Assembly: GCA_964016885.1 (NCBI GenBank)
Contig: OZ024746.1
Location: forward strand, 35,898,001 to 35,962,000
Direction of reading: 5' to 3'
From: Eledone cirrhosa
Lineage: Eukaryota
Length of the DNA stretch: 64,000 nt
Below, in pieces: positions 35,755-49,982 of this stretch. Under the pieces are notes generated by a model. The model was not told the DNA's origin and did not search any database. It saw only the letters and a program-made list of their open reading frames with translations. The position numbers were made by a program, and so were the translations under genes. Position 1 is the first letter of the stretch, and each line of letters starts with the position of its first letter.

Positions 35755-35947
35755 GCGAAGGAAAAGTGGTAAGGAACCAGGTGGACCATAACGCACCAAA
35801 GAACTCAATACTTAGGGTAGTAGAGTGGGTAATAGAAGTAAGTAAGACCCCGACGGCTGAGCTCAAGCCGTTTCGACGGCTAATTCAGTACAGAATTAGC
35901 CGTCGAAACGGCTTGAGCTCAGCCGTCGGGGTCTTACTTACTTCTAT
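35755..35947 (-). mobile_element. Palindromic insert in (TA)n, 55-bp perfect arms, about 77-bp tail
   Basis: Arms 35832-35886 and 35893-35947; contains GAAAC-GGCT...AGCC-GTC. Confidence 0.85.
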
Positions 35948-35972
35948 ATATATATATATATATATATATATA

Positions 35973-36079
35973 TAATTGTTTCTACTTTAGGCACAAGGCC
36001 AGCAATTACCAGTGAATTACTGGTACTTTATTTTATCGACCCCATAAGGATGAAAGGCAAAGTTAACCTCGGCGGGATT
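35973..36079 (-). mobile_element. SINE family A, 5'-truncated
   Basis: Core and tail. Confidence 0.88.
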
Positions 36080-37509
36080 GTAGATATACATCATATTATA
36101 TATATATATATATATATATATATATATATATATATATATATATATATATATGTAAATACATATATATACATATATATATATATATATATATATATATATA
36201 TATATATATACATATATATATATATATATATATATATATATATATACATATATATATACATATAGGTATGTATATATATTAAAGCATACATTCTCATTTT
36301 ATAAATTGCATCTATTATTTCAGTTTCATGCATTGTGCTCTTTCAAAATTTATTTTGTTTTTGCTGCTGTTGTTATTCTTTTTACAATAAAGAAATCATT
36401 ATTATTGAATAAAGAAAGCATTAATCCAATAAATTAATGTTTTGTATGCACCATCACGTAAACATGCTCTATTCTCTTCTTCTTATTTCATTTTTCACTC
36501 TCTCACTATTCATCTCTCGTTTTCCTCTATCTCTTTCTCTTTCTCTTTCACACTCTCTCCGTCTTTGCCTCACACTTGCTCTCATTCGATTATGCAAATA
36601 GTCTCTTATGCTATTGCTGATATTGTATATTCATATTTCATGGATTTTGTTCGTTTTATTCTCTCTGCAATTTAAGTACCGTCTTATTATTAACTTTGTT
36701 TTTACATTCTTATTCTCTGAGACATTTTTATAATACCATATGATATCTAATTTCTGTTCGGTTTACGTGGGCAATTAATTTATATTTTCAGGGGAAAGAC
36801 AGGCAAATTTAAAACAAATCTTCGGTTGAAAATAGCAAGTTCATAATACTTTAAGTTTACTGAAGCGTCATGTTAGCAAATAAAAACACACAGCTGTACA
36901 TTATATAGCTTATGTTGTTAGCCCAGTAGGTCCTGTGTTCAAACATAGAAAAGACAAATATTCATTAACACATCCGTTGCTAACCACAGCAAAGCCGCTG
37001 TTGTAACCATATTTAATCGAGATTTCAAACGATTAAAATAAATTCAAGATTAGTAAAATTTCTTGCAGTATGGATTAAAATGAAGAAAGGCAGAGTTGAT
37101 TTTGGAAGTTAGGTGTTATCCATCTTCATGGGTACCCCAAATAATAGTCACTGACTTGACGAAACATCAGATGGGCAGGTTCCCTACCATTACTAAATCG
37201 ACGACCAACGGACTTCGGATGGTCTTTATCTTCGTGAAGATGCGTTCTCGAGGTAGGATCTCCTCATAGGCACAGAGAGAGAGCGGTATTTTGTAGTTGC
37301 GAAATTCTTCGCTAACAATTCTTGTAGTATTCCACTCCGTATAGCACACCTAAATGCATTATTCGTTACATCGTATGGAAGGATTCCACATGCATAACTG
37401 CCTACAGTTGTCACAGAAGGAGCGAGTGGGGAATTAGTGATGGAGTGTGAAATTCATTATGCCGAATTACTAAGGCAAATAAAACAAATAAAAAACAGCC
37501 TGGATCTCT

Positions 37510-37640
37510 ATGCAGAACAAAAGATGAATGTCCTCTGTCACAAAAAAATAATGTGAGCTCGATCGAGTACGAATCTACCATGAAACCAGTTACAACCAGA
37601 TACAATCTGCTGCAGAGAACGATATATTGGTATCAAACAA
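37510..37640 (+). mobile_element. Naiad-like GIY-YIG remnant
   Basis: CRTKDECPLSQ...SIEY, then RYIGI in a shifted frame. Confidence 0.5.
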
Positions 37641-38102
37641 CAACTTGTATTAAAAAAATGGCCAGTTAAATACACACGCAAAAGTACAGAAATATACTGC
37701 ATATGCCTATTAAAAAATACCCTGAACCTTAATAAATAATAACTTTACTACAATACTCATTAAAATTATACACAGAAAGAATGCAACCAGACACATACAT
37801 ACGCGACATTTTAACGATTACAATTAGTATTACATAAAAAAATGTTAACATAAGAATTACTCCCTCTGCATAAGAAAAACAAACTTATAGTTGCAGTATT
37901 ATTACTAGCAGTATCGTAGTGCGTTGGAGACTATGCGTTGTGGCGTAGGGGTGTGACGTATCACGTTCTGAGTTGAAATCCCACCGACGTTAGCTTTGCA
38001 TTTCATCCTTATGAGGTCGATAAAACGAAGCGCCCATAATGCACTGGTGTCAATTTAATAAACTTTCTCTTCCCCTTCAAGTAAAGTAGAAACAATCGTT
38101 AC

Positions 38103-38233
38103 TTCCTTAGCATTTAAACAAATCTCATATATGAAATAACGATCGTTATTATCATATTGCCTGATACGCAACACTAGCAAATAAAACGTCTTTATGACAT
38201 ATGTTAGAGTAGGCTTTGAATCGTTAGGTAGCT
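38103..38233 (-). CDS. Internal exon (LPNDSKPTLTYVIKTFYLLVLRIRQYDNNDRYFIYEICLNAKE), phase 1 to 0
   Basis: Acceptor atttctctacag, donor GAA|GTAACG, 131 bp open; bridges the phases of its neighbours. Confidence 0.6.
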
Positions 38234-39477
38234 CTGTAGAGAAATTAATTATACTATACTTTAGCCCTGTACTTAATATTGGCACTATATATATATATAT
38301 ATATATATATATATATATATATATATATATATATATATATATATATTTGAAAAAACGGAAATAATGACTTCACTTGTAGTTCTAAACTATTTATATATAT
38401 ATACATTTATGATGTATCGCCAATGTGGATGAAAAGAAGTGATGTATATATATTATTTTAATCCAACTGTGAGGAAATGTAAAATAATATAACTTCTTTC
38501 TGCAAACTACCAAGATAAATCCCAACTAGGTGATATCATTTTTACTTATTTGTCGAATTTTCCTGTTACGTATTTAAAATTTGACTGGCAGTACATTAAT
38601 GATATTCTATTGAATACATTTCGGTGGATGGTACCGGAGGTAAAAATGTGCTTTGAGTTGAAAAATTCATTTCAAAGAGAAAGCTTACTAAAGCTTTACT
38701 AATCAGACAGAAGTTGGAAGTTTGGTATTATGATTATGTACGCATACTATTTGTTCCGAAAGGCCAATTAGAGAGGAATTTGTACATATTAGCGTCAAAC
38801 CCACATTCGTCTTGATGTCAATATATTATGTTTCTATTCCAGCAATATCCAAAGTAAAATGTCAATTAGTAGGATATCCATCGTTGGCAGCATGAAAGTG
38901 AGTTACAAGGATTTCGAAGCATGGTTTTACTTTCTAAATTCGGATTTGAATATGACATGAAACGTGACTATATTTCTTTCGTAATACTTCAAATTCTCAG
39001 GAAATGGATTTATTCAAATCACAGTTAGTGAAAGTGATCATTTTTTCCTCTCATAGCAGATCATTTTAATTGAGTGCTACGATATCCTAAAAGATTTACT
39101 CTCACTAGAAGAAATATGTAATGACTGTTTTCTGAATATCAAATCAAATATATATTTGAGGTTGTCTACTTATTCATGAAAACAATATTTATTTCAAAAG
39201 AAGTAAATGACTAATTCAAAATGCTACTAGTGTCTCACATTATACCATAGATTCTATATAATTTACATTTCATCACCAGTATAATGAACCCGGTTTAATC
39301 TGTTCTTTCTGCCAGCATGAGTTAGGCGTCTCAACAGGTAATCATGCGACGCTAGCAATCTCTCAGATGTGTTTGGATAGAGTTTCATCAGACTTACATA
39401 CGCACACAGACGAAGATAAATGCACACATATATAACTTAATGCATATTTTGTTCCATTACTGTTCTAGGTTTTTACC

Positions 39478-47914: not shown

Positions 47915-48105
47915 TAGTTATGTAATAAACAACATAAGGCAATTATTCCATTTACCAGTGGTTTCTTAAAAGCATAAGATTTTGCTTTTAAGAAACAACT
48001 GGTAAATGGAATAATTGCCTTATGTTGTTTATTACATAACTACTAAGCTCTATTACCTACATAGAGCACTCCTTTTTCCTGGACTTTTCCGACGGAATTA
48101 CTTCA
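47915..48105 (+). mobile_element. Palindromic insert in (TA)n, 60-bp arms, about 62-bp tail
   Basis: Arms 47915-47974 and 47983-48042; GAAAC(c/a)ACTG-GTA follows the central stem. Confidence 0.8.
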
Positions 48106-48802
48106 TATATATATATATATATATATATATATATATATATATATATATATATATATATATATATATATATATATATATATACATATATATATATATATAT
48201 ATGTGTGTGTGTGTATGTATATATAAAAGAGTATGACCTTATATTTGGAGTGCATGTGTGTGGTTCTCCAGTTTTGATTCACTGTCTAGGATTCTGATTT
48301 CTATACCCATTCTAAACAGACTGACTTCGGGTTATTTCTTCGGCATTTCACCGTGAAATTAGGTCTTCAATACAACGTGAAGCATCGTGGAAATGATTGC
48401 TAATAACGTCATTTTCACACACACACACACACACACATATATATATATATATATATATATATATATATATATATATATATATATATATATACTGCACTAT
48501 CCACAAGTGTTTTTTAGCCTTCATATCATGTTCTCCTGTTTTATCTGATGAAAACACAATTATTATTGCATGATGATGTTTGTTTTTGAAATGCGCATAA
48601 TAAAATACATGGAACTCCTTTAACCATCTTTTGATCTTATATTATATATATATATATATATATATATATATATATATATATATATATATATATATATATA
48701 TATATATATATATATATATACATATATATATATATACTTGTGTGTATGTGATTATTTTTATTCAGATTGTTATTAGTATCATTATAGAATAAAATACATT
48801 AC

Positions 48803-48831
48803 ATTTCTTGAAGGAGCGATAACTCCAGTAC
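48803..48831 (-). CDS. 29-bp micro-exon (TGVIAPSRN), phase 1 to 0
   Basis: Acceptor aatttcag, donor |GTAATG; phases fit both neighbours. Confidence 0.55.
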
Positions 48832-49662
48832 CTGAAATTGTTGTTAATGCTTTATAACATCATTTAATTTAAAATGAGTATTGCTCGACTATTCTTAATT
48901 GGAATATGTACATATTTAAACAAACTCCATAATTATTTTAGTAATTTATTGTAAATTGATAGAAATATCTGGATAATATTCTCTTCTAATTCGTCTCATA
49001 AAGATTTAAAATATATATATGTTTCAACAACAATATTTTTGAGAGCAGGTGTTATCAGCAAACGTATTCGTTCTGACAAGAGATCTCAACAAGTTCATTA
49101 ACCCTATATATGCATCACACAGAGGAATACACATGGGCCATGTGGGATAAATTAATTTCATTATGACTAATCAAAACACCTCAAGCTCTATATTATAATT
49201 TGGTATTGATTGATAACTTCATTTTTCCGGAAGAGGACAATTTAGCAAGTACAGTTTGCGTATTAGATAATTACCGTTACATTCTCATTTTTTTTAAATT
49301 TCTCTCATTTAAACGACACAAGCTAAGGATATTCATGGCATTTTAAGGTTCAGTGAAATTCATATTCGCTATATGTTTTCCTTTATATATTTCCATCCTC
49401 ATTAACACTCTTTTACAACATTCTAGGTTGGATTAAACGCCAGTTAAATGCAATATATTAAATTAAAACCGTTCATCGGAATTTTAAATGATCGTTTATA
49501 TACTATTTTTGAAATCAAATGCCAACATTTTATACAAGGAGAACTAACATAAAGAAGGCATTGAATTAAGTATCACTATATGTTTCATTCACACAAGAAA
49601 TATATTAATAAAAACATGAAATAAATCCCGTATTCTAATTTTATGGAATACACGAAAAATAC

Positions 49663-49705
49663 CTCCACAGATTAACATTTTGCACCACAGGCTGAAGCTG
49701 TTACA
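49663..49705 (-). CDS. 43-bp exon (CNSFSLWCKMLICG), phase 0 to 1
   Basis: Acceptor (tg)n-cag, donor GAG|GTATTT; open; phases fit. Confidence 0.55.
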
Positions 49706-49795
49706 CTGCACACACACACACATATATATATATATATATATACATGTGTGTGTGTGTGTGTGTGTGTATGTGTGTGTGTGTGTATATATATATAT

Positions 49796-49982
49796 ATATT
49801 TATTAAAATAACAGATTCAAGTTTCAGAAAATCCAGTTAAGGGTGAAAGCAGCGATTCTTTGCTTTAACTTTAATCTGTTATTTTAATAAATATTTGGTC
49901 TACGGTTCTTATATATTTGATATATATTTATCCTTATCGAGCCCTCTTTGGATTTTAGTCTTCAAATTTATTATTATTACTA
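49796..49982 (+). mobile_element. Minimal copy of the same PLE end: hairpin enclosing the hammerhead core, plus tail
   Basis: 49796-49824 pairs with 49866-49894; tail 49895-49982 is the reverse complement of about 13752-13838. Confidence 0.85.

Follow-up and report, generated by a model that had tools for sequence, protein, structure and literature searches.

In a 64,000-nucleotide stretch of the Eledone cirrhosa genome (contig OZ024746.1, positions 35,898,001 to 35,962,000; hereafter the window), four palindromes embedded in (TA)n were identified from their sequence as short head-to-head stumps of three Hydra-type Penelope-like elements (PLEs), designated families A, B and C. Each tail-less arm is joined to one arm that carries the element's tail, the arms stop at sharp 5′ limits that are specific to each family, copying restarts at defined positions, and longer copies lead into open reading frames (ORFs) coding for a reverse transcriptase (RT) with a GIY-YIG endonuclease. 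We favor, at a probability of about 0.7, a model in which twin-primed complementary DNAs (cDNAs) were made on both strands of the target, copied as far as the RNA's 5′ end and joined end to end, the limit likely being the transcription start.

All four palindromes were recovered by computation where the initial annotation had placed them, each with GAAA, stem III and the NUH triplet of a hammerhead ribozyme to the right of its centre. By chance, perfect arms of 55, 62 and 22 nt are expected about 1e-24, 1e-28 and 2e-6 times per 64 kb, respectively. Positions within the families are numbered relative to the G of the hammerhead GAAA motif. Family A comprises 35755-35947 and 47302-47509, family B 47915-48104 and family C 49796-49982; two further inverted insertions of family C were found in the window.

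35832-35947: palindrome 1, 55-nt perfect arms, 6-nt loop
47302-47430: palindrome 2, 62-nt arms, 5-nt loop
47915-48042: palindrome 3, 60-nt arms with one mismatch, 8-nt loop
49796-49894: palindrome 4, 22-nt arms, 55-nt loop
35755..35886, minus strand: family A insertion 1, tail-bearing arm, −12 to +118, sense on the minus strand
35887..35947, plus strand: family A insertion 1, tail-less arm, −18 (−22 including 4 nt of shared homology) to +43, then TAT and (TA)n
47302..47366, minus strand: family A insertion 2, tail-less arm, −22 to +43
47367..47368, no strand: family A insertion 2, head-to-head junction, two untemplated bases
47369..47509, plus strand: family A insertion 2, tail-bearing arm, −19 to +118, carrying a 75-nt tail and the 3′ half of a type I hammerhead, with cleavage predicted after GTC
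47915..47991, minus strand: family B arm without tail; the self-complementary stem II links it to its partner, with a 26-nt overlap
47966..48104, plus strand: family B tail-bearing arm from about −23, with stem II, GAAA, stem III, GTA and tail
49796..49817, minus strand: family C tail-less stub, junction near stem I homology
49820..49982, plus strand: family C arm with tail, whose start at −25 is the A of TTAGTT, where stem I begins; the hammerhead is whole and its core non-canonical
13750..18052, no strand: long family C head-to-head insertion, a 4.3-kb inverted repeat centred within the ORF, made of a 2.56-kb minus-strand tail arm that contains pieces of RT and GIY-YIG coding sequence, an additional piece of 0.3 kb and a plus-strand tail-less arm of 1.44 kb
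31590..32077, no strand: family C insertion in which a 96-nt minus-strand tail arm and a 397-nt plus-strand tail-less arm stand head to head, centre off the ribozyme stems

The identity of the families was established from longer copies. Exact motif searches across the 3.0-Gb genome containing the window, the source of all genome-wide counts given here, found 24,397 family A, 1,860 family B and 15,194 family C tails and no match to the control. In longer copies of all three families the tail ran on into an ORF marked by three motifs, RWK-like, DKT and YRDD; the first was RWR in A and C and KWK in B, and DKT replaced DKG throughout. A single ORF for RT with C-terminal GIY-YIG lay beside the pseudo-long terminal repeat (pseudo-LTR) at loci L240 (family A, ORF open) and L249 (family C), and for family B the RT part was found in L195, a locus ending before the endonuclease linker. 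Translations of A and C contained a CxCX5C linker, no CCHH motif, and CxxC and CxH around the catalytic residues, and their endonucleases were 48% identical. Atlas neighbours of the family C pieces in the window were found at 0.95-0.97, one of the clusters carrying GIY-YIG in 48% of its members; a Pfam search gave no match on those same ORF pieces. The initial annotation was thus right to see PLE pseudo-LTR ends, and no DNA transposase family was found linked to them, but its three unrelated families all connect to homologous Hydra-type ORFs.

The elements extend an established clade whose anatomy is known, and their inverted layout has already been published. Like the C-terminal endonuclease-bearing (EN+) PLEs of the Hydra clade (Craig et al. 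2021, PMC8557442), families A to C combine a C-terminal GIY-YIG domain with RWK-like and DKT motifs, a CxCX5C linker without CCHH and CxxC and CxH around the catalytic E and N, and they share the pseudo-LTR hammerhead, the (TA)n target, the inverted 5′-truncated copy and the one-sided tail, the last two being known PLE anatomy (PMC8557442). Insertion in (TA)n, an inverted truncated copy and a tail on one side were all present here. The consensus files of that study could hold the present families. Differences lie in the tail (60-90 nt here, 30-40 bp there), in the family A unit (3.54 kb, against "generally <3 kb") and in the predominance of stumps with a sharp 5′ limit, a feature that the portion of PMC8557442 available does not mention. 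Family A also forms tandem arrays of its 3.54-kb coding unit; a non-LTR retrozyme was rejected as the source of the stumps because tandem units are coding elements of this size and most stumps lack the hammerhead core.

Target-site duplications of about 15 bp in L175 and L176 (family B) and about 30 bp in L047 (family A), where the targets are not pure TA, indicate that both arms came from one event. In 19 family A pairs, the arms differed from each other at 2.3 positions per 55 nt, against 6.2, but the nearest other copy was equally close, so that this identity speaks only for a common subfamily. At L013, L014, L027, L042 and L152 different families had inserted beside or into each other's (TA)n flanks, giving composite stacks.

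The earlier expectation that longer copies would carry stem I and a CTGAnGA core upstream was partly borne out: stem I and a core were present in all three families, the strict motif only in B. Read-through arms of family A contained stem I, core, long stem II, GAAA, stem III and GTC, with the core in the U3-A8 form TTGAnAA in 34/60 and as CTGAGAA in 16/60. The family B core was canonical CTGA[G/T/A]GA in 78/86 arms and that of family C was CAGAAGA in 43/48. Because the A and C cores are variants, a scan of the window for strict CTGAnGA found no parent copy. The Rfam hammerhead model gave no match at gathering score on 8 parent loci, and no hammerhead was among the 150 matches listed of 181 in an Rfam scan of the window. 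The family A sequence was predicted to fold into a three-way junction at minimum energy, although not more stably than shuffled sequences (z −0.64).

Self-cleavage of the predicted family A hammerhead may be reflected in the 7 of 23 head-to-tail loci that restart at the predicted cut. In the 16/60 read-through arms with C3 and A8 (for example L038) the conserved 3-8 pair is mismatched, yet this subfamily has spread. The fixed CAGAAGA core of family C (for example L141 and L249) is probably impaired; a relative in L328 has canonical CTGATGA. A covariant U3-A8 core is a published variant of PLE hammerheads, which share with the present ones the type I motifs in pseudo-LTRs and pairs on opposite strands separated by 100-700 bp (Cervera and De la Pena 2014, PMC4209133). 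By comparison with that account, family A has a long stem II with a 5-bp stem III and family C a fixed U4A-like core, and the hammerheads described in the part available are not tied to truncation points.

Two fixed priming sites were apparent in each family. Tail-anchored samples contained 52/71 inverted copies in family A, 16/50 in B and 21/50 in C, and the inverted arm ended at +43 in 44/52, at +52 in 13/16 and at +48 to +50 in 16/21, respectively; this scoring missed some long inverted copies, such as L051, which was scored as non-inverted. Anchoring on the tail-less end gave 15,858 copies genome-wide, and 28 of the 30 examined had an inverted partner, which always ran into the tail; no tail-less/tail-less pair occurred among these 28. 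All six start sites of families A to C lay at TAT, matching the target, and in at least five of them TAT was followed by a similar GCTC/ACTC hairpin motif with a weak predicted fold. The form GCTC/ACTC...GAGY-ACT was seen after TAT start sites at L240:3406-3545, L249, L192 and L195, the hairpin at the family B tail end being doubtful. By sequence, the start module appears to have been duplicated, with the tail as one of its copies.

The two fixed ends and the both-strand layout match what has been observed in vitro for the PLE protein PAc Poseidon, which cuts and extends both strands of an AT-rich target from two RT start sites bounding the tail and is predicted to act as a dimer (Frangieh et al. 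2024, PMC11167929). Here, in contrast, one start site was paired with each strand, and priming involved TAT homology to the target. The two systems also differ at the hammerhead cut, where 7 loci restart here; in the accessible part of the PAc Poseidon study the cut yielded no reads and cleavage was not required (PMC11167929). The Penelope elements of Adineta vaga likewise show head-to-head inverted pseudo-LTRs, a junction palindrome and an optional tail, together with TATA- and initiator (Inr)-like motifs in the pseudo-LTR (Arkhipova et al. 2013, PMC3846280). Their palindromes were explained by self-priming on an antisense template, whereas the arm asymmetries found here favor two sense-templated cDNAs joined end to end. 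As in L1 twin priming, both ends of the target are primed. In L1, non-overlapping parts of one RNA are inverted; here both cDNAs copy the same stretch, which yields a palindrome. Twin priming of L1 is also mentioned in bioRxiv 10.1101/2024.12.14.628481.

The positions at which arms stop were sharply defined. Loci picked for a full-length match were left out of all end statistics, and 10 of 94 rows of the family A arm-end set were dropped as misparsed. Of the 56 family A arms reaching −12, 51 ended by −22 and none at −23 to −55, the stopping rate within the limit zone being about 20% per base against 1% downstream. A hand count of 100 listed arms, not all independent, placed 77 ends at −12 to −23, with 23 arms reading through, and a pattern search found 35,567 family A arms genome-wide. 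Contig depth rose 20- and 33-fold across the limit in the two sequencing runs used; X5 and X6 were too thinly covered and were left out, and X1 and X4 came from one study and are possibly the assembly's own source reads. The contigs showed only two joints and no start sites. In family B, short inverted arms piled up at −77 to −95 and none passed −95, which is the A of TCATAT and lies 58 nt upstream of stem I. Family C showed a step at −25, the A of TTAGTT, with 16 ends at −25 to +2 and 1 in the following 47 nt, most of its arms being long.

The three limits thus differ in position relative to the ribozyme, and each is the A of TCA or TTA, a pattern that we take to be initiator-like. Penelope transcription is known to start inside the pseudo-LTR from an internal Inr promoter (PMC2377424). 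A splice acceptor was rejected as the origin of the family A limit, where ends reach 1-6 nt past the AG. In family B (L192) positions −110 to −49 hold a long pyrimidine tract with CAG, and a second cluster of ends at −49 to −51 follows AACAG; these could mark an intron.

Head-to-tail junctions of family A provided a second view of the RNA ends. Among 324 copies genome-wide in which the tail runs into the ORF, 89 listed places were examined; 57 were long and ORF-containing, and 31 loci were cut short in the ORF. Of these 31, 23 were joined head to tail to a fresh pseudo-LTR start (14/18 in a first set and 9/13 in a replication set). The restarts fell at −14 to −22 in 16 loci and at +22/+23, the predicted cleavage product, in 7, with none elsewhere (P about 4e-6; P 0.002 in the replication set alone). 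The next round extended past +21 in 0/7 of the cut class and in 12/16 of the upstream-start class (P=0.001), and matching ends in both rounds of one copy are expected if the same RNA was copied again. Untemplated inserts before the upstream start ended in G in 7/9 cases (P=0.001 against 0.25), as would be expected from copying of a cap; one clone with an untemplated G has been interpreted as marking a transcript start (PMC3510499). The addition of untemplated bases followed by a jump at the template 5′ end resembles the end-to-end template jumping of the R2 RT (PMC4117753). An identical end-to-start junction was repeated in L330, where both arms pass through it, and in L256/L257. This could have arisen from a circular RNA, from several jumps on a single RNA or from a source locus arranged in tandem.

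Under the twin-priming model, a dimer would nick both strands of (TA)n and prime at the two TAT sites. Both cDNAs would be copied to the RNA 5′ end, from which the RT would sometimes jump to an RNA 3′ end, and host end-joining would fuse the two cDNA ends into a head-to-head palindrome. We infer that the 5′ limit corresponds to a genuine RNA 5′ end, for which a capped start of transcription within the pseudo-LTR is the most likely origin. In family A this start would coincide with the stem II loop, at distances of 65 and 140 nt from the priming sites, which would account for the shortness of the stumps: a transcript from about −18 would give cDNAs of about 60 and 135 nt, and hence hairpins. 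In a minority of copies the RNA would begin at the hammerhead cut, and the ribozyme stems would only sometimes supply homology for the final joint. Long copies would come from read-through or from ribozyme-cut unit RNAs, and a jump spanning the ribozyme cut would leave no seam and hence be invisible.

Several observations weigh against this model. Sixteen of 51 family C arms and 15 of the 36 family B arms kept run far past the limits, and the B and C limits rest on few ends. The matches to Inr are short, and family B matches TCA only. The excess of an extra G was not significant against the cut class (7/9 vs 1/3, P=0.24), and many of the 821 arms with an extra C genome-wide, a count with no control position, are explained by the partner arm. 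None of the 57 long ORF-containing copies, several of them from one tandem array and one with an unmeasured end, began at −12 to −22, and full-length copies therefore do not simply come from such transcripts. In the loci examined there was no case of a jump leading from the upstream start to a cut 3′ end, and none of 100 arms listed from the pattern search that gave the 35,567 total stopped exactly at the predicted cut, the cut class being rare in bulk. In addition, annealing to the partner cDNA and fold-back of a longer cDNA would leave the same sequence at the last joint. These points leave room for a tentative division of labor, which we hold to be somewhat less probable than not: capped pseudo-LTR transcripts may give only dead-end palindromes, with hammerhead-cut RNAs serving as actual templates in vivo and the RT jumping from the RNA 5′ end to its 3′ end, and the stumps would then record the entire RNA life cycle of the elements.

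The most serious rival accepts twin priming and takes the 5′ limit to be a processed RNA end or an RT stop, arising by nuclease or spontaneous cleavage at CpA/UpA in a loop, at the apex of an extended stem II, or at a lariat branch point. Taken together, these routes appear unlikely, although every limit does lie at a C-A or U-A step, and positions −22 to −14 of family A, which coincide with its limit, also form the 3′ strand of a predicted apical hairpin on the extended stem II. The TTCAT at the A and B limits fits a branch-point pattern. The intron of Penelope terminates at the helix I 5′ end (PMC4209133), the place at which the family C limit lies, and the absence of the limit as a start among the 57 long copies can be counted on the same side. 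However, jumps from the limit onto RNA 3′ ends require a free 5′ end, an extra G precedes the limit in 7/9 inserts, the family B limit falls in an unpaired stretch of the predicted fold, and the family A ends 1-6 nt beyond AG do not fit a splice acceptor.

In the proposal of the initial annotation, the growing cDNA snaps back onto stem II or stem I of the hammerhead and serves as its own primer, the centre being fixed by the ribozyme fold. Self-priming was indeed proposed for PLE palindromes in 2013 (PMC3846280), the family A centres cluster in the stem II region, and joints with stem homology occur in the window B and C copies and at L238, L052 and L042. The predicted enrichment of centres at stem II and stem I was seen in part: the stem II loop is where most family A ends accumulate (77/100 listed arms), but in B and C the limits occupy different positions with respect to the ribozyme, and both additional family C inversions in the window are centred far from it. 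Any arm ending just upstream of GAAA creates an apparent stem II at the centre. The left arm of family A is the exact reverse complement of the stem II 3′ strand and not the natural 5′ strand.

Junctions and arm lengths spoke against snap-back as the main cause. Its product should retain the natural loop and natural 5′ strand, followed by the 3′ strand again. The natural loop, of about 32 nt, was absent from the family A junctions, and of the 25 cases genome-wide in which a non-natural base follows the natural 5′ strand (6,111 arms reach −22 in one family A subfamily pattern), none was a stem II fold-back product and 2 joined stem III. With tail priming, the second arm cannot extend further upstream than the first, and arms that do so were not made by tail-primed snap-back. 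The tail-less arm was longer by more than 5 nt in 15/52 A, 1/16 B and 16/21 C inversions (shorter in 6/52, 4/16 and 4/21), and was the longer arm in both window copies of family A, extending further upstream than the tail arm in insertion 1; kilobase-long arms occurred on either side. Among 33 family A junctions, 27 were clean and 6 misparsed ones were dropped, the first window copy also being misparsed. Of the 27, 4 were blunt, 8 shared 1 nt and 7 had insertions (19/27 with at most 1 nt of homology or an insert), while the other 8 shared 2-6 nt, one using stem III; two family A junctions were spacer-less perfect palindromes. Head-to-tail restarts use the same positions without fold-back. Snap-back is therefore very improbable and largely refuted as the main route, the proposal that the ribozyme fold sets the truncation point does not hold, the mechanism as proposed is mostly wrong, and stem homology serves joining in a minority of copies.

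Least probable are DNA elements of the miniature inverted-repeat transposable element (MITE) kind, propagated as whole units, or inverted repeats that were once longer and were trimmed centrally; palindrome centres are prone to deletion and the hairpins are short, uniform-looking and present in tens of thousands, yet the junction and centre vary from copy to copy, the arms are ends of RT-encoding elements with no fixed terminal inverted repeat unit, the tail stands on one side, and central deletions would not yield a sharp limit shared with non-inverted and head-to-tail copies. Unit transposition is refuted by these features, and central trimming of a few bases after insertion is possible.

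Outside families A to C, the window contains a palindrome of another family at 18524-18866, with 166-nt arms that each hold a GAAA-CCGG-TC hammerhead-like 3′ half and a centre about 45 nt upstream, at TTCATTTTT, and small palindromes at 9500-9562 (26-nt arms) and 18412-18469 (24-nt arms). A further GIY-YIG endonuclease fragment of the same type lies at 53060-53449, with a CxLxxxC linker and YGG in place of YIG. A non-LTR retrotransposon at 57174-60823 and 62257-63714 has an RT frame of 984 aa (Pfam RVT_1, E 2.8e-30) and a second frame, of 485 aa, that resembles ORF1.

The literature listings and passages covered contain nothing that ties palindrome centres to hammerhead stems or to a start site, or that describes restarts at the cut. 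Of the link that the initial annotation suggested to be undescribed, self-priming is in print (PMC3846280). A flanking SINE resembles a cephalopod one; the available part of an octopus repeat annotation (PMC13282606) does not mention palindromes. Such hairpins are likely mis-filed as MITEs or microRNA (miRNA) precursors; the Rfam matches in the window were almost all to miRNA models below threshold.

These results bear on how PLEs make inverted and tandem ends and on what their hammerheads do. The stumps are tens of thousands of natural reaction products that can resolve priming sites, RNA 5′ ends and template jumps to the single base, and could serve by the thousand as a fossil record of element copying; the open family A ORF in L240 provides material for an in vitro test. 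If it occurs, RT jumping over the ribozyme cut would restore pseudo-LTRs and tandem arrays without a seam, would give the hammerhead its missing role and would explain why no long copy starts at the promoter.

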